Positions 8,849-40,900 of a stretch of 45,239 nt of DNA are shown here, piece after piece. Below the pieces are notes generated by a model that had not been told where the DNA came from, ran no database searches, and saw only the letters and a program-made list of their open reading frames with translations. Position 1 is the first letter of the stretch; every line of letters starts with the position of its first letter. Made by a program: the position numbers and the translations under genes. Origin of the DNA: an uncultured Candidatus Saccharibacteria bacterium (GTDB lineage: Bacteria > Patescibacteriota > Minisyncoccia > JAHCSD01). The DNA is taken from positions 473-45,711 of the forward strand of contig CAYJUS010000001.1 of NCBI GenBank assembly GCA_964373435.1, written 5' to 3'.

Positions 8849-8857
8849 CGAAAATGA

Positions 8858-8891: not shown

Positions 8892-8906
8892 ATGCTATGA
8901 GTTCGA

Positions 8907-9917: not shown

Positions 9918-9944
9918 ACTTCCCTCCTTTCTCTTTGTGTGGTG

Positions 9945-25426: not shown

Positions 25427-26992
25427 CTAACTCCTCGGAAGAGTGAACGTGAATGTCGTCCCCTCGCCCGGTTCTGATTCAACGGTGATGGTTCCTCTGT
25501 GGGCTTCAATATAGTGCTTCACGAGATACAAGCCAATTCCTGCGCCGTCAGGGACTTTTTTTATTGCCTCTTTTGTACGGAAAAATTTTGTGAATATGCG
25601 CGCAATATCTTCTTGTGTGATTCCAATGCCGGTGTCGGTAATGCTGCAGGCCAAAGCGGGCTTCGTGTGTAGTGTGGCGCTCGCAATACGAATAGACACC
25701 GTGCCTCCTTCGGGGGTGTACTGGACGGCGTTCCGCAGTAAAATCTCCACCACGCGTCCGATTTTCATACGATCAAGCGATATTTCGTCAAGGGGAGCAC
25801 CCCTGCGATCAAAACCCACGGTAACGTAATGTTGTTTTGCCTCTTTTTCAAGGTCCCGCATCACATCGCTCACAATTTCCCACAACTGATTAGGTTTTTG
25901 CTCAAGCCGGATTGTTCCTCCCTCGATCGCAAGCATGTCGTAGACGTCCTCAAGGATGCTTATTAAAAAGATGCTTTTAGCGTAAATGTTGGCAAGAGGC
26001 CTCCGGAAACGATCACTCTCTTTAGGGACGAGTTTTGAGATTTCCTCAAACAATGATTCCGTGCTCCACCGAATAACCGAGAGGGGGGTACGGAACTGGT
26101 GAGACACCACCGATATAAAGTCTCCTTTCGCGCGATCAATCATCTTGAGTTTTTCGAGGGCGTGTGCGAGTTTTTGTTTTTCCTCTTTTAATTCTCCGAG
26201 GGTGTACTCCAGCCGTTCGGTGCGAGAACGCACTTCTTCTTCCAACTTCGCCTTAGGGAGAATCGCGATGCGCTCCTGCTCGAGGAAGTCCTCCGGAAGA
26301 ACCCGCAACACCCGAGGCGCTGCTTCTTCAAGAAAATCAAAGCGTTCGCGAAATTCACGGTAGGTATCCCGAAACAATTTCTCGATCCGCAAAAATCCCG
26401 TTTCCTTTAAAACGAGTTTCGCGAGGTATCCGACAACTCCCGCAAGGATTGCCTCCGCCTTTTTTTCCTGTATGCGCGTAAAACCGCCGAGCATCACCTC
26501 GAAACGAGGCCAATCAAAGGTGTTGTTTTCCAGGAGATGCGCCGTCTCGTTTTTTTCTCGAAGATAATCCAGAAACCGGCGGCGGGAATCCTCGTTGAGC
26601 TGCCCCCGGGTTCGCTCGAAAAGCAACGCGACAAACTCCTCGGTAAGCTTGAGGGTTTGGAGGGAGGAAGGAAGAAAAAGGACGGCAAAATCGCCCTCCG
26701 CGCGCTCGGGATGGCAACCGCGGAACACGTGCTCGCGAAGCGCCTCGGAAGAAGTGCGATTGCGAGACTGTTCCTGGGTGACATGGCGCTCGAGTTCCCG
26801 ATAGATACGCGCTGCTTCCTTCTCTCGCAGAGGGCCCGGAGAAAGAGCCGCGAGAAGCCGCACTGATCTCAAAAAATCCTCCACTCGTTTTCTGTCCGAG
26901 ATCTTTTCGTCGAGGCTCTTAAAGACGCATTGTTCAAATCCTTCGCGGGGGATGCGTTTTTTAGAAAAGAGAGTAAACACGGTGGTTTCCAC
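25427..26992 (-). CDS. Cytoplasmic sensor histidine kinase
   Basis: H-box SHQFRTPLS, N-box LLRNAVQYTP, G-boxes DTGIGI and GAGIGL. The 270-aa N-terminal region has no TM segment. Confidence 0.9.
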   Translation of the reverse strand: METTVFTLFSKKRIPREGFEQCVFKSLDEKISDRKRVEDFLRSVRLLAALSPGPLREKEAARIYRELERHVTQEQSRNRTSSEALREHVFRGCHPERAEGDFAVLFLPSSLQTLKLTEEFVALLFERTRGQLNEDSRRRFLDYLREKNETAHLLENNTFDWPRFEVMLGGFTRIQEKKAEAILAGVVGYLAKLVLKETGFLRIEKLFRDTYREFRERFDFLEEAAPRVLRVLPEDFLEQERIAILPKAKLEEEVRSRTERLEYTLGELKEEKQKLAHALEKLKMIDRAKGDFISVVSHQFRTPLSVIRWSTESLFEEISKLVPKESDRFRRPLANIYAKSIFLISILEDVYDMLAIEGGTIRLEQKPNQLWEIVSDVMRDLEKEAKQHYVTVGFDRRGAPLDEISLDRMKIGRVVEILLRNAVQYTPEGGTVSIRIASATLHTKPALACSITDTGIGITQEDIARIFTKFFRTKEAIKKVPDGAGIGLYLVKHYIEAHRGTITVESEPGEGTTFTFTLPRS

Positions 26993-27072
26993 GGTATTCT
27001 CACATATAGTATATCACGAATCGCCCTCCCGAAGAAAAGTGACGAAGCGGGTCTTCCCTAAAACCCACACAT

Positions 27073-27081
27073 GTGTATAAT
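27073..27081 (+). promoter_or_regulatory. Extended -10 promoter element for yebC
   Basis: tgtgTATAAT lies 27 nt upstream of ATG 27108; the -35 is weak. Confidence 0.4.
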
Positions 27082-27107
27082 GTGGTATTATTACATAATA
27101 GATAGCC

Positions 27108-27842
27108 ATGTCGGGTCACTCACACTGGGCGGGTATCAAACACAAAAAAGCGGCGGAAGACGCCAAGCGCGGAAAGGTGTTTTCCAAGCTCGCGCGTATT
27201 ATCGCGCTCGCGGCAAAAGAAGGGGGGAACAATCCTGCGACCAACCCCAAACTGAAAGACGCGATCGATTACGCGCGCTCCTTCAACCTCCCCAAAGATA
27301 ACATAGAACGCGCTATCAAGCGCGGGGCGGGAGACGTTGAGGGCACGACGCTCGTGTCATGTCTCCTTGAAGCATTCGGGCCCGGGGGAACGCCGCTCCT
27401 TGTGGAAACCATCACGGACAATAAAAATCGGACTCTCGCAGAAATCAAAACGATTCTTGCGAAACACAACGGAAAACTTGCGGGAGAAGGAAGCGTGAAA
27501 TGGCAGTTTGAACGAAAAGGGATTATAGCCATAAAGAAGCCGGAAGGGGCAAAGGGGCCGAAAGAGGATTTGGAGTTTGCGGCGATTGATGCGGGGGCGG
27601 AGGATCTGAACTGGCAAGAGGGTGGGGTGCTCCAGATACATACGAAAACGGAGAGTTTGGATAAGGTGAAAAATAATTTGAAAGAGTCGGGGATGAAGAT
27701 ACAGTCCGCAACCCTCGGATGGGTGCCGAAAGAAGAAGGTACGCCCGAAGACGAAAAAACAAAAAACGCCCTCGCAAAACTTTTTGAAGAATTAGACGAA
27801 CACGATGATGTGCACGCCATCTATTCTAATATTAGCGAATAA
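27108..27842 (+). CDS. yebC: YebC/PmpR-family transcriptional regulator
   Basis: Starts MSGHSHWAGIKHKKAAEDAKRGKVFSKL and shows full-length family similarity. Confidence 0.95.
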   Translation: MSGHSHWAGIKHKKAAEDAKRGKVFSKLARIIALAAKEGGNNPATNPKLKDAIDYARSFNLPKDNIERAIKRGAGDVEGTTLVSCLLEAFGPGGTPLLVETITDNKNRTLAEIKTILAKHNGKLAGEGSVKWQFERKGIIAIKKPEGAKGPKEDLEFAAIDAGAEDLNWQEGGVLQIHTKTESLDKVKNNLKESGMKIQSATLGWVPKEEGTPEDEKTKNALAKLFEELDEHDDVHAIYSNISE

Positions 27843-27843
27843 C

Positions 27844-27911
27844 TGCGAATAGCTTACGCCCTGCGAATGATGCGATATTCGCACAATTCGCATCCGCGAA
27901 GCGAATTCGCA
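27844..27911. promoter_or_regulatory. Array of TGCGAAT/ATTCGCA half-sites (operator-like) between yebC and ruvC
   Basis: TGCGAAT at 27844 and 27862; ATTCGCA at 27877 and 27886; the 10-bp palindrome GCGAATTCGC at 27901-27910. This includes a perfect TGCGAAT-N8-ATTCGCA. Confidence 0.5.
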
Positions 27912-28412
27912 CGATTCGTGATCGTCTTAGGTATTGATCCCGGGACACGAAAGATTGGCTACGGCGTGATAGAGGAAACGGGCGGACGTCTCCGCCACGT
28001 CTCCCACGGCGTGATAAGAACAGACCCTGAGAATTCTCGCCAGGAAAACCTTCTCGAACTTCAAACCGCGCTTATTAATCTGGCAAAGCATCACAAACCG
28101 CAAAAGATCGGCTTAGAAAAGATCTTCTTTTCAAAAAACGTAAGAACGGCGATGGGGGTAAGCGAGGCGCGAGGCGTCATTCTTCTTACTGCGAAAGAAT
28201 TGGGGGTCCCTCTTGTGGAGTTTACGCCGCTTGAGGTAAAGCAGGCGGTGACGGGAAGCGGAGCGGCGGATAAAAAACAGGTACAAAAAATGGTAACATT
28301 CATCCTTCGCCTTGAGGAAGAGCCGAGGCCGGACGACGCGGCAGACGCTCTCGCCATCGCAATATGTTGCGCGAGCAACACGTCGCGACAAAACCTAAGC
28401 GCTAAATCCTAA
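27867..28412 (+). CDS. ruvC: Crossover junction endodeoxyribonuclease RuvC
   Basis: VLGIDPGTRKIGYGVIE, LEKIFF and a C-terminal DDAADALAIA. The true start may be GTG 27918. Confidence 0.9.
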   Translation: MMRYSHNSHPRSEFARFVIVLGIDPGTRKIGYGVIEETGGRLRHVSHGVIRTDPENSRQENLLELQTALINLAKHHKPQKIGLEKIFFSKNVRTAMGVSEARGVILLTAKELGVPLVEFTPLEVKQAVTGSGAADKKQVQKMVTFILRLEEEPRPDDAADALAIAICCASNTSRQNLSAKS

Positions 28413-28432
28413 TTCACATATGGAATAAAATT

Positions 28433-29095
28433 ATGCCCGAACTCACCCAATACATGATTACAAGCGGCGTACCGAGGGAACTCATCGGTCTTGTTTTGAT
28501 GCTTCCTCTTATTGCGACTTTCGTCGCGTTCTCACGTGAGATTATCGGGGTCAAAGGATTCGGTATCTACACCTCTCTTATCATCGCGTACGCCTTCGTA
28601 GGGACGGGTCTTGCGAGCGGCGTTATTATCTTTATGGTTGTGCTTCTTTCGGGGACCCTGGTACGTCTTGTTGTCAGGCGTTTCCGGCTTCTCTACCTCC
28701 CCCGTATGGCGATTGTACTCACGGGCGTTGCGTTCACTCTCTTTTTTATGTTTATCGTCGCGGCGTTCTACAGAGAAATCGTCGTTCTCAATATATCTCT
28801 TTTCCCTATTATTATTATGATACCGCTTGTAGAAAAGTTTATCTCGGCCCAAATAGAGCGAGGGGCCCAAACGGCCATCACCCTTACAATCGAAACGTTG
28901 GCACTCGCCTCTCTCTCGTTTTTTATCATCACGTGGGGATGGCTCGTGGAAATCCTTCTTGATTGGCCGCTCGTGGTATTCCCCGTCATGCTCATCCTAA
29001 ATGTGCTCATCGGCAAGTGGACGGGCCTCCGTGTTACTGAACTTATACGATTTAAAGAGCTCATCAAGCATCTCGAACTCTCCCGGAAACAATGA
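28433..29095 (+). CDS. Multi-pass membrane protein resembling the 7TM module usually fused to an inactive transglutaminase
   Basis: About 6-7 hydrophobic segments, with its stop overlapping the start of the downstream ATP-grasp gene. The family call comes from context and memory. Confidence 0.5.
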   Translation: MPELTQYMITSGVPRELIGLVLMLPLIATFVAFSREIIGVKGFGIYTSLIIAYAFVGTGLASGVIIFMVVLLSGTLVRLVVRRFRLLYLPRMAIVLTGVAFTLFFMFIVAAFYREIVVLNISLFPIIIMIPLVEKFISAQIERGAQTAITLTIETLALASLSFFIITWGWLVEILLDWPLVVFPVMLILNVLIGKWTGLRVTELIRFKELIKHLELSRKQ

Positions 29096-30414
29096 TTCCC
29101 TTACGCTACTTTCTCAATAGCGGCGGCGTTCTTGGAATAAACGCGAGAAATCAGCTCTACATCAGGCCCTCTGGTTTTAGGAGGGCCGTTCGTATACTCG
29201 ACAACAAACTGACCACAAAACGCGTCCTTAAAAAAGCGGGGGTTCCAACGCCCGAAACTTTGGGGGTTATCCGGTCGCCAAAGGATCTCTATGAATTTGA
29301 TTGGGACAGGCTCCCGCCAAGCTTCATTCTGAAACCCAACCGCGGCTACACCGGAAGGGGAATTATAATTGTGTATGGAAAGAAAAAAGGAGAGCGCTCC
29401 GCGTGGGTAAAAGCGGACAGATCCATCCTCCGCGTCCGAGATCTCTACGCGCACATCCAAACCATTCTCGAGGGAGAACACACAAAAACCGGCTTGGCTG
29501 ATCGCGCCTATTTCGAAGAACGGCTCAAAATCGCAAAAGTGTTCAAGCATTATTCGTTTCGGGGTATTCCGGATATCCGTGTGATCGTCTATCACAAAAT
29601 CCCGATCATGGCGCAACTCCGCCTCCCCACCCTCCATTCCGAGGGAAAGGCAAATTTACACTTGGGCGCGATCGGGGTGGGAGTTGACATGGCAACCGGT
29701 GTCACCACAAACGCAATCTTAAACAACTCTTTTATCGAGTATATCCCCGGAACCCGGCTCTCGCCAAGGGGAATAAAAATTCCCTATTGGAAAAAAATCC
29801 TCTCGTTGGCGCATCTTGCGCAAGTGGCAACGCGGATTGGTTTTGTAGGGGTGGATATCGCGATAGACCGTGAAAAGGGTCCGGTAGTAATTGAGTTGAA
29901 CACCCGGCCGGGGCTCACGATCCAGACGGCAAACCTTGCGCCGTTAGGAGAACGGCTCGAGCGGATCCGCGGGCTCAAGGTGGAGAGCGTGGAACGCGCG
30001 GTAAGTATCGCCCGCAACCTTTTTGGAGGCGAAGTAACGGAGGAAGACATAGAGGAGGTAGCGGGGAAAAAAATAATCGGTGTGAACGAAAGAGTAGAAA
30101 TTATTTCGGGAGAAAATAGAAAAATAGAGACGGTGGCAAAAATTGACACGGGGGCCTATCGCACGGCAATCGCGCAAACAATCGCAAGCGCCCTCGATCT
30201 CAAAGAAGCAGAGCGCTACAAGGTCGTACGAAGCACGCTCGGAAAAGAAGAGCGACCGGTTGTGAAGATAACCCTCAAGCTTCGGGGAGAAATAATGGAG
30301 ACAGAGGTCTTTGTCTCGGATCGGGAAGAAATGAAGCGGGATGTCATCGTAGGACGAAAAGACTTAAAAAGATTTCTCGTCGACCCTGCAAAAAATATTC
30401 TCGTAGGGAAATAA
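29092..30414 (+). CDS. RimK-related (alpha-L-glutamate ligase-like) ATP-grasp enzyme fused to a retropepsin-like C-terminal domain
   Basis: N-terminal LGINARNQLYI..LDNKLTTKRVL signature, ATP-grasp core (VIELNTRPG), and C-terminal KIDTGAYRT (30139-30165). Confidence 0.7.
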   Translation: MIPLRYFLNSGGVLGINARNQLYIRPSGFRRAVRILDNKLTTKRVLKKAGVPTPETLGVIRSPKDLYEFDWDRLPPSFILKPNRGYTGRGIIIVYGKKKGERSAWVKADRSILRVRDLYAHIQTILEGEHTKTGLADRAYFEERLKIAKVFKHYSFRGIPDIRVIVYHKIPIMAQLRLPTLHSEGKANLHLGAIGVGVDMATGVTTNAILNNSFIEYIPGTRLSPRGIKIPYWKKILSLAHLAQVATRIGFVGVDIAIDREKGPVVIELNTRPGLTIQTANLAPLGERLERIRGLKVESVERAVSIARNLFGGEVTEEDIEEVAGKKIIGVNERVEIISGENRKIETVAKIDTGAYRTAIAQTIASALDLKEAERYKVVRSTLGKEERPVVKITLKLRGEIMETEVFVSDREEMKRDVIVGRKDLKRFLVDPAKNILVGK

Positions 30415-30420
30415 CCATCT

Positions 30421-31572
30421 ATGCTTCTCACAAAAACCCCGCAAAACGCCAACGCGGACAAAAACCTTGCACGCATAGGGGAAAGGTTACGCGTGCTCCA
30501 TTATCTCGACCCTATTAATCTCCGGAGTGAGAAGAAACGATTTCTGCGGCGCTGGCTCAATGGTTCGGTGTACAACCCCCGGTTCCGCTATCGGAAAATT
30601 GATATTGATCTTGAAGGGATATCACGCGAGCTTCGACGTCTGCCGATCGATACCGGAAACGCCATGGGAAAAATCCTCAAAAAAAAGCGGGGACGGCTTC
30701 TTTCGCGCACCGCGCTACTTTCCGAACGAGGGACTTCACGTTTTCTTTATATGGGCCATAAGCTCTACGGCAGGCCTTCGACAACGCTCGTTTCCCGCGC
30801 GGTAAAGATCCTCGAAAAACTCAAAAATAAAACGCACGATCACCACGCACGCACCGTCTCTTCCAGAAGAGCGGCCCAAATTTTTAAACAAGCCCTCGCT
30901 CGTCACCGCATTGATTGGCACGTAACGGAAAAACGGGATCTTGCCGCAAAGGCAGGAGTATCAACCAACAAAAGTGTCTTGGTGGTACGAAAAGGCGCGT
31001 GGTTTTCCCGGAAAGAAGTGAAGCGTCTTATCGCTCACGAAATAGAGACCCACATATTTCGGATAGAAAACGGACGGCTTCAGCCGTACTCGATTTTTGC
31101 CCAAGGTTTCCCGGGACCCGAGACAACGGAAGAAGGGCTTGCGGTGTGGGCCGAGTTTCGTCGCGTGAGAAACGATTACGAGCGGCGAAGAATAATCGCG
31201 GCGCGCACGGTCGGCGTGGAGCGTGCGCTCCATCGTTCCTTTTTTGAGGTTTTCGAGCACCTTATTGGATTCAATCTCCACCCTGATTCCGCGTGGGACA
31301 TATGTGTGCGCGTAAAACGCGGCCTCCGGGATACCTCTCGGTTAGGGGCTTTCACGAAAGACCACCATTATTTTAAGGGGTATCTCGAAATCAAACAGTA
31401 TCTCAAAAAAGGAGGAGACTTGCGGGATCTCTATGTCGGAAAAATAAACGTGGCGAGCGTCGAACGCCTCTCGCGCCTCTCCGCTGTTATCCCGCCCAAA
31501 TTTCTCCCTTGGTATCTCAAAGACCGCAAAGGTTCACATGCAAGACACTATAGTAGATCTACAAACCCTTAA
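30421..31572 (+). CDS. DUF1704/MATCAP-family metallopeptidase (QEGLA-motif protein)
   Basis: HExxH as HEIETH (31036-31053) and an EEGLA motif (31129-31143). Confidence 0.65.
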   Translation: MLLTKTPQNANADKNLARIGERLRVLHYLDPINLRSEKKRFLRRWLNGSVYNPRFRYRKIDIDLEGISRELRRLPIDTGNAMGKILKKKRGRLLSRTALLSERGTSRFLYMGHKLYGRPSTTLVSRAVKILEKLKNKTHDHHARTVSSRRAAQIFKQALARHRIDWHVTEKRDLAAKAGVSTNKSVLVVRKGAWFSRKEVKRLIAHEIETHIFRIENGRLQPYSIFAQGFPGPETTEEGLAVWAEFRRVRNDYERRRIIAARTVGVERALHRSFFEVFEHLIGFNLHPDSAWDICVRVKRGLRDTSRLGAFTKDHHYFKGYLEIKQYLKKGGDLRDLYVGKINVASVERLSRLSAVIPPKFLPWYLKDRKGSHARHYSRSTNP

Positions 31573-33145
31573 ACGATTTTTCCGCGCCCACCTCAAAACC
31601 CCCGTTTTTGGCGCAGGAGTGTACGCGTTCCATCGGTTAGGGCCCGAGGAGTTTTTGCCCGATTATCGTATCCTCGCGCTGCGGGATAGTCTTGACACGC
31701 GCCTCATTGAAAAAGACGTAAAGGTGATCGTGCTCGAAAAAGGAATGGGCGCCGCTCACCTGGATGCCCCGCGAAATGCCACCACTGTTCTTTCCCATCC
31801 GAAAGTTCGTGCATATCTTTCCGGATTTAAACGCCCGGTTGTCTTGGTATATAAAACCTCTGAAAAAATGGAGGGCGTGGCGAAGAAAGAAGGCTGGATT
31901 CTCGCACAAAACCGTGTCACGTTCGGTAAAACACGCTTCGAACACAAAGCGCGCCTGAGAAAAATTCTCTCGCGCATAGGGGTTCCGGTACCTCCCGGCG
32001 AAATAGTGACGCTCTCCCACACAACGAAGGATCTCGACGAACCCCGCGTCTCCGTGCTCTTCACCCATCTTTACCGCCGCTTCCGAAAAACATACGGGGT
32101 TCCGTTTGTGGTCCAGCATCCCACGAGAGGAGGGGGAAAGGGAACGTTCTTTATCCGAAACGAAGAAGAATTCTTCTCAGCGCTTCGAAACCTGCGCGTA
32201 CGAATTCCGAAAGACGACGACCGAAGAGAAACGGAGAAGAAAACGCATGACGTAGTGGTCGCCCAGTTCGTGAGAGGTCCCTCACCAAGCATCACAGGAT
32301 GTGTCACGCGCCATGGCATTCTCTCGACCAACCTCCAAAACCAAATTTTGGATTCCCCTTTTCTTTACAATCCCCGAAGGGGGGCAGGACTTTTTTGCGG
32401 ACACGATTGGTCGGGGGCCAGTTTCCCTCCCCACATAGAGAAAGAAGCATACCGTATCGTGGAAAAAATAGGAACCCTTCTCAAACAGGAAGGGTATCGG
32501 GGAGTGTTCGGCATTGATTTTGTTCTTGACGAAAGTCGTAAACGTCTCTATGTAACCGAGTGCAACCCGCGACTGCTTGGCTCTTTCCCGACGCTCGCTA
32601 TGGTGCAACTCGCATCACACGAACCTCCCATTCTTGCCTTCCACATCCTTGAATACCTTGGCATTCCCTACCGGCTTGACCGAGAGAAGATAAACCGCCT
32701 CATGAGAAAAAAAAAGGAGGGGGCGCAAATGCTCCTCCACAACCTCTCGGGGGTCTGGGCAAAAAATCACGACCAGCTCGAAGCCGGAGTGTATCGGCTT
32801 CGCGAAGAACCGGCAACCGGCCCGCCGGGAGCGAGGTTCGCCAAAGGCGACGACCGGCAACCAATCCTTGAGTTTCTACGGCCGGGATATAAACTCCGGC
32901 ATATAGAAAACAAAGGTGAATTTTTGATCACGGAGGGGGTGCCGTTCAAAAAATCACATTTCAGCCCTAACAGGAGGCTCCTCCGTATCCTCACCTCGAG
33001 AAGCGCTCTCGGGCGCCCCCCGCGGGATCTCGCCCCTTGGGCGCAGCACATCGCACAAATAGTTTATGCGGGGTTGAAGATACGGCCCGTACGATTCGCA
33101 AGAATAATCAAGTGGTTTAACCCCCGTTATCTCGCGAAGGGATAG
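31538..33145 (+). CDS. ATP-grasp domain protein (second ligase of the operon)
   Basis: 535 aa with ATP-grasp blocks (FVVQHPTRGGGKGTFFI, VVAQFVRG, GVFGIDFVLD..LYVTECNPRL). It overlaps the previous gene by 35 nt. Confidence 0.65.
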   Translation: MQDTIVDLQTLKRFFRAHLKTPVFGAGVYAFHRLGPEEFLPDYRILALRDSLDTRLIEKDVKVIVLEKGMGAAHLDAPRNATTVLSHPKVRAYLSGFKRPVVLVYKTSEKMEGVAKKEGWILAQNRVTFGKTRFEHKARLRKILSRIGVPVPPGEIVTLSHTTKDLDEPRVSVLFTHLYRRFRKTYGVPFVVQHPTRGGGKGTFFIRNEEEFFSALRNLRVRIPKDDDRRETEKKTHDVVVAQFVRGPSPSITGCVTRHGILSTNLQNQILDSPFLYNPRRGAGLFCGHDWSGASFPPHIEKEAYRIVEKIGTLLKQEGYRGVFGIDFVLDESRKRLYVTECNPRLLGSFPTLAMVQLASHEPPILAFHILEYLGIPYRLDREKINRLMRKKKEGAQMLLHNLSGVWAKNHDQLEAGVYRLREEPATGPPGARFAKGDDRQPILEFLRPGYKLRHIENKGEFLITEGVPFKKSHFSPNRRLLRILTSRSALGRPPRDLAPWAQHIAQIVYAGLKIRPVRFARIIKWFNPRYLAKG

Positions 33146-33176
33146 CGCGCGTTCGTCCCCAAGAACAGACGGGGGG

Positions 33177-34367
33177 TTATTCTGGACGTATGCGCAGAAA
33201 TCGTTTCTTCCCCACCTGAACGAGGGTAGGACGGGTAAGACGCAACGGATCTCTCCAGTCCTTTTTTGTTTTGCCATCCAGTTCCACCGCGCCCTCCCGG
33301 ATAAACCGTTTTGCCTCGGTGTTCGAAGCAGCAAGCCCCAAACGAACAAGAAGCGGGGGGAGGGCGTAATCGCCCCTTTTGATGGCCATTGTTTTAATCC
33401 GGGAAGGGGTGGTATGTTTTTTGAAGACGCGGTCGAATTCTTCTTCCGCCTCTTTCGTTTTTTGAGAGCCGTGGTAGATAGAAACCACTTCACGCGCAAG
33501 ACGAGCTTTCGCGTCGCGCGGATGGAAACGAATTTCTTTTTTGATACGAACGAGTTCCCTCTCGCTCACGCGGGTTACCAGTTCAAAGTATGGAAGAATA
33601 CAAGAATCGGGAAGAGACATAATTTTCCCATACTGGGCATGGGCGGATTCCGTAAGACCAATATAGTTCCCCAGGCTTTGGCTCATTTTCCTCGTCCCGT
33701 CGGTGCCACGAAGCATCTTAAGCGTAATTAAGTCTTGGGGCTCTTGTTTGAATGCCCTTTGGAGCGCCCGCGCCTGCATCTCATTAAAAAGCTGGTCGCT
33801 CCCGACTACGGTGAGATCAGAACGCACGGCAACCGAATCATACGCTTGGAGCGCGGGGTAGAGGAGTTCGTGCAAACGAATCTCGCGTTTCATGCGAATC
33901 CGCTCTTTAAACATGTCCCGTTCGAGCATCCGCTGAACGGTAAAGTGTGAAAAAAGACGGAGAAACTCCTCTGCCCTCATTCGGTCGTACCACTCGCTGT
34001 TGTAATGGACTTCTGTCTTTTTGAGATCCAGTATGGACGAGAGTTGCGTAAGATACGATCGGGAGGTTTCACGCACATCGCGTCTGGCCCGAAGTTTTCG
34101 TGTACGGGATGTATCGGTGGGATCGCCAAACCGCCCCGTGAAATCCCCTATAATAAAGACGATGGTGTGGCCGGACAACTGCAGCAGCCGTAATTTTTCG
34201 TATACCGCGGCGTAACCTAAATGAAGGTCGGGGGTGGTGGGATCTACCCCGTGCTTCACCCGAAGTTTTCTCCGGGAGGTCAGTTTTCTTATCACGCTCT
34301 CTTTGTCTATCACCTCCACCACTCCCCTTTTGAGAAAGGTGGGGACGGAAAATGTGTGCATGCCCAT
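33177..34367 (-). CDS. tyrS: Tyrosine--tRNA ligase
   Basis: HIGH-type DLHLGY, KMSKS-type KMSQS, and a C-terminal S4-like domain. The start could be 34361, 34367 or 34406. Confidence 0.9.
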   Translation of the reverse strand: MGMHTFSVPTFLKRGVVEVIDKESVIRKLTSRRKLRVKHGVDPTTPDLHLGYAAVYEKLRLLQLSGHTIVFIIGDFTGRFGDPTDTSRTRKLRARRDVRETSRSYLTQLSSILDLKKTEVHYNSEWYDRMRAEEFLRLFSHFTVQRMLERDMFKERIRMKREIRLHELLYPALQAYDSVAVRSDLTVVGSDQLFNEMQARALQRAFKQEPQDLITLKMLRGTDGTRKMSQSLGNYIGLTESAHAQYGKIMSLPDSCILPYFELVTRVSERELVRIKKEIRFHPRDAKARLAREVVSIYHGSQKTKEAEEEFDRVFKKHTTPSRIKTMAIKRGDYALPPLLVRLGLAASNTEAKRFIREGAVELDGKTKKDWRDPLRLTRPTLVQVGKKRFLRIRPE

Positions 34368-34417
34368 GGGGGTGGTAAAAATAAAACTACTCTTTAGAAT
34401 AAGCATACGCTAGTCCC

Positions 34418-34433
34418 CGGTTGAATTCAACCG
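34418..34433. promoter_or_regulatory. Perfect 16-bp palindrome in the tyrS/PBP divergent region
   Basis: cggttgaattcaaccg. Confidence 0.35.
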
Positions 34434-34456
34434 AAAAATATGATAGGAAAAACGCA

Positions 34457-36934
34457 ATGGTGACAAAAAACAAAAGGGGGAACCCGCGAAATCCATACGG
34501 AGCGCTCGTCCGCGGAAGACCGAAAAAACGCGGTTTGTTCTTTGCCGGGATAATACGGCTGGTACGACTGGGGCTTGTCGCGGGAATCCTTATTATAATG
34601 GGGGGAATATTTATGTTTGTGTATTTCGCGAAGGATCTCCCTGACCCCTCTCGCCTCGACAAAATCGATGTCAGCCAATCTACCAAAATATATGATCGTA
34701 ACGGAAACGTGGTGCTGTACGACATATATGGAGAAGTGAGAAGGAATGTGGTTCCGTTCGGGGACTTCCCGTCCTATTTGGTCTATGCGACAATCGCGAT
34801 CGAAGACGAACGGTTTTATTCGCATCCGGGGATTGACATAGAGGGAGTTCTTCGGGCAGCCGTCCATAATGTCCTTAACAACGGGTCGATACAGGGCGGC
34901 TCGACCATCACTCAACAATTTGTAAAAAACGCCCTCCTCACGCCCGAACGTACGCTAACCCGGAAGATAAAAGAGTGGGTTCTCGCGACGGAATTAGAGC
35001 GCCGGTATTCCAAAGATGAAATAATGGGGTTTTACCTGAACCATGTTCCTTATGGTTCGGTCGCATACGGCGCGGAAGCGGCGTCGCAAATTTACTTCGG
35101 GAAATCCGTAAAAGATATCACACTCGCCCAGGCCGCAACCCTCGCTTCTCTCACCAAGGCACCTACGTACTACTCTCCCTATGGATCTAACCCAGAACGG
35201 CTGGAAGAACGGAAACGCCTCGTTCTCGAGAAAATGGCTCGTCTTGGCTTCATCGAAGATCGGGAAAAACAGCAGGCAGAAGAAGAAGAGATTACATTCG
35301 CACCGAATATCCAGAAAATCCAGGCTCCTCACTTTGTCATGTTTGTGCGAGAATATCTTGAGCGCACGTACGGAAAGGAGGTTCTAGAAAAAGGGGGGCT
35401 CCGTGTCACCACCACGCTCGATTTCGAACTCCAGAAACTTGCGGAGGAAGCGGTGGCAAAATACCAGGAAAACAACAAAAAACAGTTCGGTGCTTCAAAC
35501 GCCGCGCTTGCGGCTATCGATCCGAAAACAGGCCAGATCCTTGCGATGGTGGGGTCGGTCGACTATTACGACATTGAAAACGATGGAAACGTGAATGTGG
35601 CAACACGGGAACGACAGCCCGGCTCCGCCTTCAAGCCTTTTGTGTATGCTGCGGCATTCCAGAAAGGATACACTCCCGACACAGTACTTTTTGACGTACC
35701 CACGGAATTCGCAACGCCCGGAGCAAAGAGTTACCAGCCCCGCAATTATGACGGGGGCTTCCGAGGACCAATACGGATGGAGTCTGCACTTGCGCAATCC
35801 CTCAATATTCCTTCTGTGAAAACATTGTATCTAGCGGGGGTCGAGGAAGTGGTAGCGTTCGCGAACAAACTGGGAATCACCACCCTCCGCGATCCTTCGC
35901 GTTACGGCCTTTCCCTTGTGTTGGGCGGAGGGGAAGTAAAACTCCTTGACCTTACTTCGGCATTCGGCGTATTCGGGCAGGAAGGTATAAGACATCCGCC
36001 TGTGTTTATCGCCCGTGTCGAAACCGAAAAAGGAGAAGTGGTCGAGGAATTCCGTGAGAAAAAAGAAAGTGTTCTCTCCCCGGAAACATCGCGACTGATA
36101 AACGCTATCCTCTCTTCAAACGAACTTCGCGCCCCGATATTTGGATCCGGCTCGCCGCTTGTCGTTCCAGGATACCAAGTGGCGGCGAAAACCGGAACCA
36201 CCCAGGAATACCGGGATGGATGGACGGTCGGGTACACCCCCACGCTCGTCACGGGGGTGTGGGTGGGGAACAACGACAACCGTCCGATGAAAGGAAGCGC
36301 GGATGGGGTAAATGTCGCTTCTCCCATATGGAATTATTTCATGCAACACGCGCTCCCACGGTTTCCGAAAGAAGATTTCAAACCATACGAAAAAGAAGTG
36401 ACGCGAAAACCAATTCTCGACGGAGAGGTTTTTCCAGAGAACACCGTCCATTCTATCCTTTATTGGGTGAGAAAGAACGACCCGCGGGGCGAACCGCCCC
36501 AAAAACCGTCAGAAGACCCACAGTTCGACAATTGGGAAAAGGGCGTCCGGGAGTGGGCGAAAATGTCTCCCTACAAAGCCTTCCTTGACGAGGAGGGAAG
36601 TGGTTTCATTCCGAGAGAAGACCCCCGCGCCCTCGACAAACTCCCGAAACTAACGATTTCAAGTCCGGCTCCCTATGAAGTATTTTCAGGAACATACGGA
36701 GAGGTAGAAATATCGCTTGACGCGTTTTGGGGTGTTTCCCAGTTTGATATATTTTTAGGAGACCGCTTGGTCGGAAGCTACCACCCTAACCCACGCGAAA
36801 ACAAAAAAAACGTCTATTCTTTCCTTGTCCTTCTCCCAGAGGAACAAAAGGGGGAACAAACGACGCTCTTGGTTCGTGTGTTTGACGTGGCGGGGAACAA
36901 AACAGAGGCGCAGGTCCCGGTGCGAATACGGTAG
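34457..36934 (+). CDS. Class A penicillin-binding protein (transglycosylase/transpeptidase, PBP1A-like)
   Basis: N-terminal TM helix; GT51 motifs EDERFYSHPGID and GGSTITQQ; transpeptidase motifs SAFKPF, SLN and KTGT. Confidence 0.9.
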   Translation: MVTKNKRGNPRNPYGALVRGRPKKRGLFFAGIIRLVRLGLVAGILIIMGGIFMFVYFAKDLPDPSRLDKIDVSQSTKIYDRNGNVVLYDIYGEVRRNVVPFGDFPSYLVYATIAIEDERFYSHPGIDIEGVLRAAVHNVLNNGSIQGGSTITQQFVKNALLTPERTLTRKIKEWVLATELERRYSKDEIMGFYLNHVPYGSVAYGAEAASQIYFGKSVKDITLAQAATLASLTKAPTYYSPYGSNPERLEERKRLVLEKMARLGFIEDREKQQAEEEEITFAPNIQKIQAPHFVMFVREYLERTYGKEVLEKGGLRVTTTLDFELQKLAEEAVAKYQENNKKQFGASNAALAAIDPKTGQILAMVGSVDYYDIENDGNVNVATRERQPGSAFKPFVYAAAFQKGYTPDTVLFDVPTEFATPGAKSYQPRNYDGGFRGPIRMESALAQSLNIPSVKTLYLAGVEEVVAFANKLGITTLRDPSRYGLSLVLGGGEVKLLDLTSAFGVFGQEGIRHPPVFIARVETEKGEVVEEFREKKESVLSPETSRLINAILSSNELRAPIFGSGSPLVVPGYQVAAKTGTTQEYRDGWTVGYTPTLVTGVWVGNNDNRPMKGSADGVNVASPIWNYFMQHALPRFPKEDFKPYEKEVTRKPILDGEVFPENTVHSILYWVRKNDPRGEPPQKPSEDPQFDNWEKGVREWAKMSPYKAFLDEEGSGFIPREDPRALDKLPKLTISSPAPYEVFSGTYGEVEISLDAFWGVSQFDIFLGDRLVGSYHPNPRENKKNVYSFLVLLPEEQKGEQTTLLVRVFDVAGNKTEAQVPVRIR

Positions 36935-37373: not shown

Positions 37374-38492
37374 TTAACCGTTCTTGATGGGCATAACAAG
37401 ATAGAATTGAAGAGGGTCTTCGGGGGACGTTAAAATGACGGGTTGGATTTCGGAATTTATCCCGAACACCACTTCTTTCGCCCCCATGCTTTCCAGTCCA
37501 TCGAGAAGAAATTTCCAATTAAACGCGATGGAAAGATGCTCTCCGGGAAGTTTTATTGATTTAGCAAACGGAATAATAGTAGCACCCTCTCCAGAAGAAG
37601 ATTCACGTGCCGCAAGTTCCACCCGATCTTTAAAAAAGTCAAATGTGATATCGTTCGATCGGTTCGAGAAAGCGCTGATCGCTTTAATTTTTGGTACCAA
37701 AACAGACGAGGAAAAAGAAACATGAAAAGACGTGTCTCGCGGAACAATCTCGTCATACCGGGGGAATTCTCCGTCAATGAGACGCGAAACCAACTCACAG
37801 TTTTCGTTATTAACTACAACTTGATTTTGATCTCCCGCAAGAAGGGTGGTTTTTTCGTCGCCTCCGCTAAAAACCCGAATAATTTCGTTCACCGATTTCG
37901 ATGGAAGAATAAACGAAAAATCATTTTTGATATCCCCAAGGGGTATTTTTTTCTCGGTAAGCCGAAAACTGTCGGTAGAAGCAAGAATAAGATGATGCGC
38001 TGAGGAGTCTGTCTTCAAAAAAACACCAGTGATCTCCGGTCGCATTTCCGAAACACCCGCGATTCGTACAACTTTTTCCAAACCCGAAATAAACTCTTTT
38101 GTGGTTATTGGTATCCTCTCCCCTTTTTTGGGTTGCGGAATAATAGGAAATTCTTCGGGATCGCTACCGAGAATTTGTGCTTTGTAGTGTTCCGTTTTAA
38201 GTAGTATGTTGTGTTTTTTTGATTCCAGCGTTATTTTTTTCGCGCCGACAAGGTTGTGCACAAATGTGCTGATTAATTTCGCGGGAATAGCTGCTTTTCC
38301 TTCCTCTTCTATTTTCCCCGGTATCGTGCAGGTGATTGCCATTTCAAGGTCTGTGGAAGAAATGGTAATTTTGTTTTTTTCTGTGCGGATAAGAACGTTG
38401 CTTAGAATAGGAAGGTTGACGTTTTTCCCCGCGATACGTTCTGTGATACGCAACGCTTCTCGCAATTTTTCTTGTAGACAAATAATCTTCAT
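37374..38492 (-). CDS. dnaN: DNA polymerase III beta sliding clamp
   Basis: 372 aa starting MKIICLQEKL, with three-domain length and a position downstream of dnaA. Confidence 0.9.
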   Translation of the reverse strand: MKIICLQEKLREALRITERIAGKNVNLPILSNVLIRTEKNKITISSTDLEMAITCTIPGKIEEEGKAAIPAKLISTFVHNLVGAKKITLESKKHNILLKTEHYKAQILGSDPEEFPIIPQPKKGERIPITTKEFISGLEKVVRIAGVSEMRPEITGVFLKTDSSAHHLILASTDSFRLTEKKIPLGDIKNDFSFILPSKSVNEIIRVFSGGDEKTTLLAGDQNQVVVNNENCELVSRLIDGEFPRYDEIVPRDTSFHVSFSSSVLVPKIKAISAFSNRSNDITFDFFKDRVELAARESSSGEGATIIPFAKSIKLPGEHLSIAFNWKFLLDGLESMGAKEVVFGINSEIQPVILTSPEDPLQFYLVMPIKNG

Positions 38493-38710
38493 AATTATTA
38501 TCCGTATTTATTAATAGTTTATTGTTGTTAAGAGAGGCTTGAAACCTGTATAACTCTTTTTTTTCGCTTATTTTAAGGGAATTATGTGTTGTGGGGAAGG
38601 GGAGGAAGAGAGGAAAAACAGAGGGGGGAACACAGGAAAACACACTTTTTATTCTTCCTGATTTCTTTCCCACCGTTTTTCCATATTTTTTCCCCTTGTT
38701 TTCCTCAATC

Positions 38711-40165
38711 CTACCCGTTTTCCATGTATAACCTTTCTCGTAACGAATTGATTTCTTCGAGAAGCGTGTCGCTGTTCTCCAGTTGTCTCGTAATTTTTTC
38801 GCATGCGTGCATAACCGTGGTGTGGTCCCGTCCTCCTAACTTCATACCAATAAAAGGGTAAGAAGACTTTGTCTCTTTTCTCAGAAGATACATAATGATT
38901 TGTCGCGGGACCACGAACTCTTTTTTTCGTTTTTCACTGATAATATCTTTTTCACTCACGTCATAAAAAACCGAAACCACCCGGAGCACTTTTTTCCACC
39001 CTATCACCTTGTTGTTTTTCGAAATCACAGGGGCGAGGATGGTTTTCGCGGTTGCAGGATTTGTTATGCTTTCGGGGTTTGAGCGCGAGGAAGCCGCAAG
39101 CCGGTTCAGCGCGCCTTCAAGTTCTCGGATGTTGGTTTGGATATGGGTGGCGATAAACTCACACACCTCGTCGGTGGGGTTTAAGCCGCGCTCCTTCGCC
39201 TTTATTTTCAAGATCGCGATGCGTGTTTCTAAATCAGGTTGTCCGATATCAGCGATCATTCCTCCCTCGAAACGGGAGCGGAGTCGCCCTTCGAGCGTTG
39301 CGATTGATTTTGGAGGTCGGTCAGAGCTCAAGACAATCTGTTTGTTCCTTTCGTACAGCTCGTTGAATGTGTGGAAAAACTCCTCTTGTGTTTTTTCTTT
39401 TCCCGCGAGAAACTGGATATCGTCAATAATAAGAACATCAACTTTCCGGTATCGGTCCTTAAACTCTTCTATTTTTCTGTCTCGTATAGAGGTGACAAGC
39501 TCCCCGGTGAACTTCTCGGACGTGACATATTTTATGTTCTTCCGCGCGGGTTTCTTGGCTATTTCGTTGCCGATTGCCTGGAGAAGATGTGTTTTCCCAA
39601 GTCCCACCCCTCCATATAAAAAAAGAGGATTGTATAGCGTACCCGGGTTTTGTGCGACGGACCAGCTTGCTGCATGCGCCAGTTCGTTGGACCCCCCCAC
39701 TATAAAAGAATCAAATGAATATTTAGAATTCAGGTTTGTGGCTCCGTTGATTTTCGGAACATCCAAATTCAGTTGTTTTTCGTCGTATGAATTCACCAGA
39801 GACAATGTGTCCCGCGAGGATGATTTTTTCGGCAAGAGCGCCCTGGAGGTTTCGACCACATACTCGACCTTGTTTATTTCAGTGGGCAACCCCTTGAACA
39901 CCTTGAGGAGAGACGCGCTGTATTTATTTTGCAGCCATTCTTTTGTGAAACTATTGGGGACGCCTATGGTTGCGGTTTTGTGTTTTTTCGAAATAAGCGA
40001 GGTATTTTTGAACCACGTGGTAAAGCTCGCTCGAGAGATGTTGAGCTCTATTTCTCCTAAAACCGTTTTCCACAGTTCTTTGTTCGTCATGTTTTCCCAA
40101 TGCGGCGAGTCCGCTTTTGCGTATGATCTAAAGAGGGGGCGGTTGCGGCGTTGGCCTTGGTTCAT
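38711..40165 (-). CDS. dnaA: Chromosomal replication initiator DnaA
   Basis: Walker A GGVGLGKTHL, DDIQFL, sensor and box VII regions, and the C-terminal HTH DHTTVMHA. ATG 40165 has GAGGGTGG upstream. Confidence 0.95.
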   Translation of the reverse strand: MNQGQRRNRPLFRSYAKADSPHWENMTNKELWKTVLGEIELNISRASFTTWFKNTSLISKKHKTATIGVPNSFTKEWLQNKYSASLLKVFKGLPTEINKVEYVVETSRALLPKKSSSRDTLSLVNSYDEKQLNLDVPKINGATNLNSKYSFDSFIVGGSNELAHAASWSVAQNPGTLYNPLFLYGGVGLGKTHLLQAIGNEIAKKPARKNIKYVTSEKFTGELVTSIRDRKIEEFKDRYRKVDVLIIDDIQFLAGKEKTQEEFFHTFNELYERNKQIVLSSDRPPKSIATLEGRLRSRFEGGMIADIGQPDLETRIAILKIKAKERGLNPTDEVCEFIATHIQTNIRELEGALNRLAASSRSNPESITNPATAKTILAPVISKNNKVIGWKKVLRVVSVFYDVSEKDIISEKRKKEFVVPRQIIMYLLRKETKSSYPFIGMKLGGRDHTTVMHACEKITRQLENSDTLLEEINSLRERLYMENG

Positions 40166-40185
40166 TGTACCACCCTCACGATATT

Positions 40186-40248
40186 TTATCCACAACTCCT
40201 CGTCAAGTTTAAAACCTTGTTTACAGCCTGTGGATTATCTGTTGATAA
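40186..40248. promoter_or_regulatory. DnaA box cluster upstream of dnaA
   Basis: TTATCCACA (40186-40194, perfect), TGTGGATTA (40229-40237) and TGTTGATAA (40240-40248), the latter two with 1 mismatch each. Confidence 0.6.
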
Positions 40249-40382
40249 CCCAACAAAAACTACCGTGGCAGAGGCGTTACGCCCCTGCCCCCCGACAAAG
40301 CATTGACCCTTATGTTGTTTGTTGTTACCCTTGTAGATATGCACGTGTTACCCTCTATTAATAATCGTTGACCACTGAACTG

Positions 40383-40517
40383 TGTCTATCACATACCAGC
40401 CCAAAAAAAGGAGACGCAGGCGCGTGCACGGGTTTTTGCACCGCATGAGGACGAAAGCCGGAAGAAGAGTTATCTCGCGCCGGAGGGCGAAAAAACGGAA
40501 GCGACTCTCCGTGTAAC
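40383..40517 (+). CDS. rpmH: 50S ribosomal protein L34 (44 aa; absent from the ORF track)
   Basis: GTG start after an in-frame TGA. The translation is [43 protein letters not shown]. Confidence 0.9.
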
Positions 40518-40549
40518 ACCACGGCGGCCGGAGTCTCCTCCCCATCTTT

Positions 40550-40900
40550 ATGGCCCTTTCTCGCTTGTTTCGGATTACCCGCAAGACCGATTTCACACGC
40601 ATCACCAAGAAAGGAAAACGCCTGCGGGGTCCTCACTTCAAGGTGGTGTTTGTGGTAAATCGTCTTCCGTATGCCCGTATCGCCGTCGTGGTGTCTAAAA
40701 AAATCGCGGCGAAATCTTCTCGCCGCAACAAAATTCGCAGAAGAATAACCGAGGCATTCCGGACCCGTTTCGCGAAATCACTCGCGGGACACGATATTCT
40801 TCTTGTGGTGGGGTCGTCCTCCGAGCATATCTCGCGAAGCGAGACAGAAGCGGAACTTCTCTCGCTCTTCAGAAAAATTCACTCGCAACATCCACGATGA
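40550..40900 (+). CDS. rnpA: Ribonuclease P protein component
   Basis: Basic 116-aa protein (RITRKTDFTRITKKGKR..) between rpmH and yidD. Confidence 0.85.
   Translation: MALSRLFRITRKTDFTRITKKGKRLRGPHFKVVFVVNRLPYARIAVVVSKKIAAKSSRRNKIRRRITEAFRTRFAKSLAGHDILLVVGSSSEHISRSETEAELLSLFRKIHSQHPR

Follow-up and report, generated by a model that had tools for sequence, protein, structure and literature searches.

What might an operon that pairs two ATP-grasp proteins with two peptidases make, and on which side of the membrane? The question is raised by four plus-strand genes in a 45,239-nucleotide stretch of contig CAYJUS010000001.1 (assembly GCA_964373435.1, from an uncultured Candidatus Saccharibacteria bacterium), the whole of which is called the window here. 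In the list of open reading frames (ORFs), gene 1 (28433-29095, 220 amino acids) encodes a seven-transmembrane (7TM) protein, gene 2 (29092-30414, 440 amino acids) an ATP-grasp ligase fused to a retropepsin-like domain, gene 3 (30421-31572, 383 amino acids) a MATCAP/DUF1704 metallopeptidase, and gene 4 (31538-33145, 535 amino acids) a second ATP-grasp protein. An earlier note, made from the sequence alone, had proposed a membrane-associated system that ligates and trims a peptide. Judged by profile searches and alignments, the locus is a rearranged Patescibacterial variant of the recently described Rlo system, with genes 1 and 2 homologous to the 7TM half of RloB, to RloC and to RloA. We put the probability at about one half that this variant faces the cytoplasm and, with two accessory enzymes, assembles an acidic (glutamate-type) peptide chain on the inner side of the membrane and cuts it back.

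An Rlo-like core

The rloABC operon was described in 2025 in Pseudomonas aeruginosa and occurs also in other Gammaproteobacteria (Lormand et al., mBio; PMC12239564). RloA is a secreted retropepsin that cleaves runs of at least eight glutamates, RloB joins a periplasmic inactive transglutaminase to seven transmembrane segments, and RloC is a cytoplasmic ATP-grasp protein; RloB was reported to be 96% proteobacterial (PMC12239564). For comparison we used a canonical rloABC operon, annotated as such, from a plasmid of Legionella adelaidensis (L090 in our numbering of loci).

Gene 1 matches PF14402 7TM_transglut at profile positions 58-247 of 248 (92 bits, E = 4.7e-26, above the Pfam gathering score), the RloB model NF052267 at positions 316-507 of 508, and residues 309-505 of Legionella RloB (28% identity, E = 5e-19). 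It corresponds to the 7TM half of RloB only and has no transglutaminase-like domain; nor could one precede it, because the ruvC gene ends 20 nucleotides upstream. Hydropathy and positive-inside analysis predict seven helices, with the N-terminus (about 15 amino acids) outside and the C-terminus inside. Three motifs, the LLYxP motif of a cytoplasmic loop (28688-28702) and, also on the cytoplasmic face, ExF (28832-28840) and the TGLRxxE tail (29021-29041), are at least 90% conserved across 35 7TM sequences that include Legionella RloB.

The ligase domain of gene 2 (29092-30036) is of the RloC type. It matches TIGR02291, "alpha-L-glutamate ligase-like," over residues 8-311 (249 bits, E = 4.3e-74) and PF14397 ATPgrasp_ST (200 bits, E = 4.5e-59), and gene 2 shares 41% identity with the annotated Legionella RloC (E = 3e-67). 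The RimK family PF08443 is matched with 22.8 bits, over 34 residues only, and since the match to the TTL Pfam family is marginal (E = 0.008, below the cut-off) the domain is not a TTL family member. Its LGINARNQLYI signature lies at 29131-29163, the K81 motif at 29326-29346 and the catalytic/Mg motif E268-L-N-T-R272 at 29893-29907; the ATP-grasp hallmarks K81, E268, N270 and R272 are invariant in 38 homologs. An AlphaFold2 model (predicted local distance difference test, pLDDT, 79.7) finds ArgX/LysX and RimK as the closest structures, with D-Ala-D-Ala ligases and cyanophycin synthetase also among the matches. ArgX/LysX and RimK ligate glutamate or aminoadipate onto a protein C-terminal glutamate.

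The remainder of gene 2 is an RloA/RimB-type retropepsin-like aspartic peptidase domain (30073-30411). It matches PF05618 (39.7 bits, E = 5.8e-10), NF052264 RloA3 and TIGR03698 (clan AA), and Legionella RloA (E = 5e-4), whereas the RimB model NF052261 gives only E = 0.018. The D-T-G-A of its KIDTGAYRT motif (30139-30165; K350-I-D352-T-G-A at 30139-30156) and G421-R-x-D (G-R-K-D, 30352-30363) are invariant in the same 38 homologs. In RloA, residues K46, R114 and R137 have been shown experimentally to bind poly-glutamate, and two RloA-type crystal structures, 9g58 and 9g59, are available (PMC12239564). Both align with the gene 2 domain; the aligned lysine of 9g58 at D-2 and its arginines at D+66 and D+89 have the spacing of K46, R114 and R137 from D48 of RloA. 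The corresponding residues of gene 2, K350, R388 (in E-R388-PVV, 30250-30264) and R411 (in S-D-R411, 30316-30324), are invariant or nearly so in the 38 homologs. The domain carries neither a signal peptide nor a transmembrane segment and, for want of a signal peptide, is taken to be cytoplasmic. Proteins like gene 2 are numerous: more than 4000 homologs of about 440 amino acids are known at cluster level, practically all of them Patescibacterial, and 1924 relatives came from exhaustively searching 1.84 billion representatives.

A MATCAP-family peptidase and a second ligase

Gene 3 matches PF08014 MATCAP over positions 7-356 of 365 (209.7 bits against a cut-off of 27, E = 8.5e-62). It is not a member of TIGR02421 "QEGLA" (229.5 bits against a cut-off of 338.65, E = 7e-68), and its own motif reads EEGLA, not QEGLA. 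Similarity to human MATCAP (7z5g, E = 1.3e-12) is confined to the catalytic half and runs across both motifs, which in the human protein are HEIGTH and TEEGLA. The metal motif of gene 3, HEIETH (31036-31053; H206, E207, H211), and T-E-E238-G-L-A (31126-31143, EEGLA at 31129-31143) supply four residues, H206, E207, H211 and E238, that are invariant in 29 diverse homologs. The eukaryotic enzymes MATCAP/TMCP1-2 (KIAA0895L/KIAA0895), the only members of the family for which such activity is known, remove the C-terminal tyrosine, the C-terminal glutamate and the poly-glutamate side chains of tubulin, and so are deglutamylases as well as detyrosinases (PMC10499314).

Outside the candidate phyla radiation (CPR), MATCAP genes keep different company. 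Those of DPANN archaea (Woesearchaeota, Iainarchaeota and Nanoarchaeia; for example L012, L017, L018, L023, L024, L038, L053 and L070) are 33-39% identical to gene 3, as similar to it as those of other CPR bacteria, and stand alone, with no ligase or 7TM partner nearby; the neighbors examined are unrelated (CorA, Trm1 and others). Proteobacterial homologs are fused to or adjoin N-formylglutamate amidohydrolase-like domains, and GshB/RimK-type ligases lie next to them; here too the chemistry is that of glutamate peptides, a point in favor of a glutamate chain. Two loci labeled Planctomycetia and Omnitrophota (L058:5865-13905 and L085:5849-13899) hold a different conserved MATCAP neighborhood, with genes for a radical-SAM protein (spore-photoproduct-lyase-like), a secreted nitroreductase-family protein, MATCAP, a distant gene-4-like ATP-grasp (24-27% identity), a protein of about 525 amino acids and a CstA peptide/pyruvate transporter.

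Gene 4 matches PF02655 ATP-grasp_3 (36 bits, E = 9e-9) and, far below its cut-off, NF005096 (PRK06524, named "biotin carboxylase"; E = 8.6e-36); Pfam and NCBIfam profiles gave no RimK match. Its start is the ATG at 31538, since the N-terminus is conserved from residue 5. The AlphaFold2 model (pLDDT 90.7, predicted template modeling score 0.90) has a three-domain biotin-carboxylase/PurK-like fold, and the best Foldseek matches are biotin carboxylase and PurK domains (template modeling score about 0.5, 12-15% identity), which indicates fold class only. The ATP-grasp residues, the Gly-rich loop G198-GGKGTF (32129-32149), D327 and E341-x-N-x-R345 (E341-C-N-P-R345, 32558-32572), are invariant in 39 homologs. 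So, or nearly so, is the extreme C-terminus, P-x-(F/Y)-L-A-K-G followed by the stop codon (33122-33142), in the same 39 homologs and in a fusion protein, P0248, described below; model confidence is lower in this C-terminal block (mean pLDDT 68). Free C-terminal tails are seldom invariant, and this one is suggestive because the system itself may act on C-termini.

The ORF coordinates, junctions and motif positions of the earlier note all proved exact, its four family assignments were borne out by profile searches well above the Pfam gathering scores, and the active sites are present and invariant across homologs of genes 2-4. HEIETH needs a correction of type, being the atypical HExxxH form of this family rather than a classical HExxH. 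The system is membrane-associated, as the note had it; the absent transglutaminase domain and the cytoplasmic retropepsin, which together change the likely site of action, had been missed.

Conservation and gene fusions

Genomic contexts were taken from two samples, one seeded on gene 2 (seven contexts plus an unbiased metagenome sample of 80 loci) and one seeded on MATCAP (80 loci from species-representative genomes). Domain architectures were surveyed in the 150 nearest 50%-identity cluster representatives and classed by hidden Markov models (HMMs) from our own alignments.

The most constant partner of gene 2 is the 7TM gene, immediately upstream in 61/61 evaluable loci. A second ATP-grasp ligase nearly always comes next after gene 2, tightly coupled, and its type alternates. 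It belongs to the RimK family in 43 of 64 loci (about 300 amino acids, PF08443, some with the RimK pre-ATP-grasp domain) and is of the gene 4 type (about 500 amino acids) in at least eight by HMM (11/53 by tblastn). MATCAP is present in only about 4% of gene-2-seeded loci (2/64 have it at the next position), and all four window genes occur together in a single one of the 44 loci evaluable on both sides. The exact four-gene set is found again at L007/L010, in the closest relative (76% identity), as well as in a few more genomes, Spechtbacterales-type and others. The closest relative by genome is "Patescibacteria group bacterium Bin_050," and complete relatives measure 0.96-1.33 Mb. Universal co-conservation of gene 4, which the first contexts had led us to assume, was overturned by the unbiased metagenome sample.

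Seen from MATCAP the association is far closer. A gene-2-type ligase lies directly upstream in 47 of the 80 MATCAP-seeded loci, all of them from CPR bacteria, and in about 40 of the 47 the ligase, a retropepsin-like segment of about 110 amino acids and MATCAP form one ORF of 765-800 amino acids (Pfam-confirmed). Such ligase~MATCAP proteins (~ marks a fusion) occur in Gracilibacteria, Peribacteria and other CPR lineages. The view that MATCAP is a one-lineage insertion foreign to the system was rejected on the strength of this adjacency and of the fusions. Within the roughly 40 single-ORF loci, the D-T-G of the retropepsin is degenerate in 37 (replaced by D-L-S, D-L-A or D-P-T) and retained in 3. 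No gene-4-type ligase was found within 8 kb of the degenerate fused genes; ligases of that type were found only where the retropepsin site is intact.

The survey of 150 proteins shows the same reciprocity. It comprises 50 proteins of the form ligase~(retropepsin-like)~MATCAP, 44 ligase~retropepsin, 47 ligase only, 6 7TM~ligase and 2 ligase~retropepsin~second ATP-grasp. D-T-G is lost in 47/50 MATCAP-fused proteins vs 22/56 proteins that have a C-terminal extension but no MATCAP fusion (Fisher p about 1e-9, without phylogenetic correction). Of the 50 fused proteins 43 keep the MATCAP motif whole, and among the other seven, five are truncated sequences. For each adjacent gene pair of the window operon a fusion exists in some genome: 7TM~ligase, with or without the transglutaminase domain, in P0491, P0496, P0497, P0507 and P0508; ligase~retropepsin~MATCAP with a detectable retropepsin in P0366; ligase~retropepsin~ATP-grasp_3 in P0375 (all by Pfam); and MATCAP~gene-4-type ligase in P0248, present in two assemblies in the expected genomic context. 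In the window itself the genes are tightly coupled, with an ATGA overlap between genes 1 and 2 (29092-29095), a 6-nucleotide gap between genes 2 and 3 (30415-30420) and a 35-nucleotide overlap between genes 3 and 4 (31538-31572), the last due to a 13-amino-acid C-terminal extension of gene 3 relative to its homologs. Natural fusions are strong sequence evidence for one physically associated machine, and because the ligase directly follows the 7TM C-terminus in them, that machine should sit on the cytoplasmic face.

The earlier claim that the genes form one functional module is thus upheld by translational coupling and by fusions of all adjacent pairs. Co-conservation, which the earlier note had itself named as a test, came out divided: the 7TM gene and gene 2 invariably go together (61/61), but most loci have a RimK-type ligase in place of gene 4 and MATCAP is rare in ligase~retropepsin loci. 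The ligate-and-trim reading of the note was broadly right, with the amendments that the system is a variant of a named one, Rlo, that the four genes are not conserved as a set, and that MATCAP nevertheless is part of the system.

Several further arrangements were seen. RimK-type third genes are exemplified by L098:7335-8237 and L171:7389-8276 (loci L098-L175), and the CPR operon often mixes RloB/RloC/RloA-like with RimK-like components, which are in separate operons in Pseudomonas. One locus (L009) has both a gene-4-type and a small ATP-grasp, and in two (L005 and L006) an M17 leucyl-aminopeptidase gene directly follows the second ligase (L005:9837-11219). Among single proteins, P0364 fuses ligase~retropepsin to a YdjC-like carbohydrate-deacetylase domain, P0379 adds a region of about 400 amino acids to ligase~retropepsin, and P0501 is ligase~TPR-repeat.

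Proposed mechanism

Sequences, predicted structures and comparisons show family membership, intact catalytic residues, cytoplasmic enzymes, an obligatory 7TM partner and physical or functional coupling via fusions; the scheme that we favor builds on these. The ligase or ligases would dock on the cytoplasmic face of the 7TM protein and, driven by ATP, join acidic residues through alpha linkages, most probably into oligo- or poly-glutamate. The chain would be either a free polymer or an extension of the C-terminal carboxylate of an acceptor. The fused retropepsin, as a homodimer, would cut long glutamate runs endolytically, and it probably also activates or organizes the ligase, as RimB does RimK. 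(RimB cleaves poly-glutamate and stimulates poly-alpha-glutamate synthesis by RimK about 4-fold by direct binding [PMC11957791]; like RloA, it cleaves runs of at least eight glutamates [PMC12239564, PMC11957791].) In this model, the ligase-activating role would be the reason why the domain is kept after catalytic decay. The MATCAP-like enzyme would trim the chain exolytically from its C-terminus, and could take over trimming. A further ligation step, be it initiation, branching or capping, would fall to the second ligase, and the 7TM protein would be a membrane dock and possibly a product conduit, for export, or an anchor.

Glutamate is the most likely monomer because the nearest characterized ligases are glutamate ligases, the usual second ligase is of the RimK family, the retropepsin keeps the residues that bind poly-glutamate, glutamate chains are substrates of both peptidase families, and the three enzymes are unusually basic for the genome (net charge per 100 amino acids of +5.7 for gene 2, +11.5 for gene 3 and +6.9 for gene 4 vs a genome-typical value of about +1). 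By analogy with Rlo, the system probably serves envelope or osmotic homeostasis. The Rlo phenotypes, known only from P. aeruginosa, concern osmotic tolerance, biofilms, cell shape and sensitivity to beta-lactams, and deletion of rloB or rloC suppresses the hypo-osmotic lethality of a triple protease mutant (PMC12239564). In Photobacterium damselae at low salinity, a QEGLA/MATCAP-family gene that adjoins a GshB-annotated ATP-grasp is up 27-fold and RimK is up 52-fold (PMC10308900), which fits the hypo-osmotic theme.

A number of points weigh against a glutamate-chain machine of the Rlo kind. We infer the ligated amino acid from family resemblance only, for the CPR members and RloC alike, and the resemblance is imperfect: the TIGR02291 score of gene 2, 249 bits, is below the equivalog cut-off of 314, and RimK TIGR00768 gives 36 bits against a cut-off of 143. 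The Pfam family name of the ligase, "sugar-transfer associated," makes a non-peptide carboxylate acceptor possible. The Pseudomonas protease is periplasmic and acts at a different site, so the Rlo analogy may not be transferable. Gene 4 has a carboxylase-like fold and no close characterized relative. The association statistics ignore phylogeny, and P0375 and P0248, each a single cluster, could be assembly or frameshift artifacts. The basic charge of genes 2-4 could reflect affinity for membrane or nucleic acid. Finally, the search of the window turned up no candidate acceptor whose C-terminus is acidic.

Two linked and rather improbable extensions of the scheme deserve mention, the first as a sub-hypothesis of the second. 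If the LAKG tail of gene 4 were the primer for the chain and the active retropepsin released the chain, this would explain why gene-4-type ligases were found only where the retropepsin site is intact. The bolder proposal is that the locus encodes a reversible C-terminal (poly)glutamylation machine, docked on the membrane, near-universal in Patescibacteria and located near the origin, that is the prokaryotic counterpart, and possibly the source, of the TTL/TTLL-MATCAP/TMCP pairing of the tubulin code. Writer and eraser would then be encoded in one operon or even in one polypeptide.

Alternative explanations

The same machine might instead serve another chemistry, making an envelope peptide, a uronic-acid/teichoic-like amidation or a cyanophycin-like polymer; we regard this as possible but doubtful. 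The envelope peptide would be a peptidoglycan stem or cross-bridge peptide; in all versions the 7TM protein would be a flippase or exporter and the peptidases would edit or recycle. D-Ala-D-Ala ligases and cyanophycin synthetase are indeed among the structural matches of gene 2, but its best relatives ligate glutamate or aminoadipate to protein C-termini and are not Ddl. Two ligases recall the two ligase activities of cyanophycin synthetase, yet the commonest second ligase is of the RimK family. A PBP1A gene is conserved 1.3 kb downstream, although it lies beyond the convergent tyrS in an oriC-proximal backbone where linkage may be historical. The ATPgrasp_ST family name, the YdjC-like carbohydrate deacetylase domain of P0364, and the cell-shape and beta-lactam phenotypes of Rlo mutants (PMC12239564) also suit an envelope role, against which stand the conserved poly-glutamate-binding residues of the retropepsin.

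An unlikely reading is that the locus polyglutamylates and deglutamylates the C-terminal tail of a specific cytoplasmic protein, such as ribosomal protein S6, and so tunes translation in the manner of RimK and RimB, with the 7TM protein as regulator or sensor. Ligase and retropepsin are both cytoplasmic, as in RimK-RimB and RimBK, and RimK and LysX/ArgX are the nearest structures, but by the profile scores just given the gene 2 ligase is RloC-type. A RimK-family gene is the usual third gene, whereas the 7TM gene, which no locus of 61/61 lacks and which has become joined to the ligase gene several times, is lacking from canonical Rim systems. In Pseudomonas, moreover, rimB showed no genetic interaction with the rloA protease mutants tested (PMC12239564). 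MATCAP relatives do act on protein C-terminal tails; here no acceptor was identified, no rpsF gene was found among the window ORFs examined, and no evidence was found for S6 as target.

A carboxylase-type role for gene 4 (with biotin-, PurK- or carbamoyl-phosphate-like chemistry), merely syntenic with an Rlo-like core, is very improbable. The Foldseek top matches and the name of the nearest NCBIfam model point that way, but the matches are distant, and carboxylase models, whose cut-offs run to hundreds of bits, give 11-19 bits (accC TIGR00514, 16 bits vs 626). Neither the window nor related loci contain a gene for a biotin carrier or a carboxyltransferase, and the proteobacterial PRK06524 relatives adjoin a C45 peptidase, an aminotransferase and an oligopeptide ABC transporter and no biotin carrier. 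Gene 4 is translationally coupled, proteins of its type occur joined with MATCAP (P0248) or with ligase~retropepsin (P0375), and RimK-type ligases fill its operon slot elsewhere.

Genomic surroundings

The four coupled genes had been taken as the whole unit, which may be too short. Two plus-strand genes lie directly upstream, outside the system as claimed here: a YebC/TACO1-family gene (27108-27842) and ruvC (27867-28412), with gaps of 24 nucleotides between them and 20 nucleotides between ruvC and gene 1. A promoter and terminator consensus scan of 26900-34500 gave counts no higher than in shuffled controls. Close spacing on the same strand without such a signal means that the transcription unit may exceed four genes, with yebC and ruvC possibly co-transcribed. 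The order YebC-RuvC-7TM-ligase is kept in all Parcubacteria-type loci examined.

The operon itself, about 4.7 kb in size, is some 5.6 kb from dnaA, as in relatives (L003, L093), within a conserved backbone, RuvB ... YebC-RuvC-[system]-TyrRS-PBP1A-DnaN-DnaA. The tyrosyl-tRNA synthetase (TyrRS) gene (33177-34406, minus strand) is convergent with gene 4 across a 31-nucleotide spacer. A functional link between this synthetase and a family named for tyrosine carboxypeptidases was considered, but the adjacency is also kept in loci without MATCAP, and backbone synteny is the most likely explanation. The probable replication origin region spans 37374-41084, with dnaN (37374-38492, minus), dnaA (38711-40195, minus), a cluster of DnaA-box-like sites at 40186-40248 and then yidC (41085-41870, plus); G+C falls to 0.41 at 37-39 kb.

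PADLOC models matched none of the four operon proteins, and an anti-phage defense reading was dropped. No precursor-peptide ORF was found in or adjoining the operon, and scans of the window yielded no Rfam RNA family and no tRNA. Elsewhere in the window, three consecutive minus-strand ORFs without a Pfam family (7779-10442; 328, 336 and 165 amino acids) include a middle one (8907-9917) that ends in the acidic tail ...PPEETGETESEL, the sole acidic C-terminus among the larger window ORFs. It was considered as a substrate lead; without a Pfam family and not being FtsZ, it offers none. A gene for a PilB-like T2SSE type II/IV secretion ATPase (19087-20769, plus), in relatives a single gene of 555-1009 amino acids, is split into two ORFs by three in-frame stops (TAG, then TGA and TAA) within a conserved motif region, and is likely a pseudogene or an assembly error.

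Significance

Ligase-plus-retropepsin systems of the Rlo/Rim kind are already known, and the locus is not categorically new. The earlier note's statement that no function or substrate had been shown experimentally is overtaken by the genetics and protease specificity of rloABC (PMC12239564) and by the biochemistry of RimB/RimK/RimBK (PMC11957791) and of MATCAP/TMCP (PMC10499314). In the searchable literature we found no description of a transglutaminase-less, fully cytoplasm-facing CPR form, of a MATCAP-family peptidase as operon partner or fusion of a ligase, of the reciprocity between MATCAP fusion and retropepsin decay, or of the alternation of second ligases.

In 2009, Iyer, Abhiman, Burroughs and Aravind (Mol Biosyst; cited in PMC12096838) reportedly predicted computationally neighborhoods of ATP-grasp, 7TM-transglutaminase and "Zn_protease" genes. 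Common to these and the present locus is the notion of peptide ligation next to a membrane protein and a partner resembling aspartyl proteases. To our knowledge that prediction included no transglutaminase-less CPR form, MATCAP fusions, retropepsin decay or second-ligase alternation.

The CPR variants can be regarded as natural experiments that constrain the substrate and mechanism of Rlo. They suggest that the periplasmic transglutaminase-like domain is dispensable, that the protease can work on the cytoplasmic side, tethered to the ligase, and that a second ligase, usually RimK-type, is part of the design. They suggest too that the retropepsin site can decay when a MATCAP-type exopeptidase is fused while the domain is kept, which fits RimB-like activation of the ligase. 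Bacterial DUF1704/QEGLA proteins gain a definite role that can be put to the test, that of erasers paired with an ATP-grasp ligase, and the closest prokaryotic relatives of a tubulin-modifying enzyme family are placed in CPR bacteria and DPANN archaea. That ultra-small genomes keep three to four genes for this system near oriC suggests an important function.

Comparison with known systems

The closest known system is Rlo. Both place a 7TM protein, a TIGR02291-type ATP-grasp and a PF05618 retropepsin in one operon, and both conserve the catalytic D-T-G and the lysine and arginines that contact poly-glutamate. The window locus differs in having no periplasmic inactive-transglutaminase domain, in a retropepsin that lacks a signal peptide and is attached C-terminally to the cytoplasmic ligase where RloA is secreted, in its gene order (7TM-ligase~protease, against protease-7TM-ligase in Rlo), in the addition of a MATCAP-like peptidase and a second ATP-grasp, and in a host that is a monoderm-like CPR bacterium.

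RimK-RimB and RimBK, the nearest precedent for the mechanism, resemble gene 2 in coupling a cytoplasmic ATP-grasp ligase physically to a retropepsin, in the latter case by natural fusion; the RimBK hybrid is proteolytically active (Little et al., JBC 2025; PMC11957791). However, RimBK is protease-ligase whereas gene 2 is ligase-protease, and the gene 2 ligase is RloC-type and has an obligatory 7TM partner. Given the opposite domain order and a different ligase type, the gene 2 fusion is independent of RimBK in origin.

MATCAP/TMCP belongs to the same family as gene 3, with the identical HExxxH and (T)EEGLA motifs, and the tubulin cycle of MATCAP with TTL/TTLL offers an analogous pairing of a peptidase with ATP-grasp amino-acid ligases for acidic C-terminal chains. 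Unlike the eukaryotic enzymes, the CPR peptidase is operon-linked or ligase-fused, in a host without tubulin. Bacterial QEGLA (PF08014) proteins are of the same family and again stand beside an ATP-grasp ligase; they differ in length (620-660 amino acids), in having in some cases an N-terminal domain like N-formylglutamate amidohydrolase (FGase) or a separate FGase gene, in a GshB-type ligase partner, in the motif QEGLA instead of EEGLA, and in standing without the 7TM and retropepsin partners that mark the system described here.

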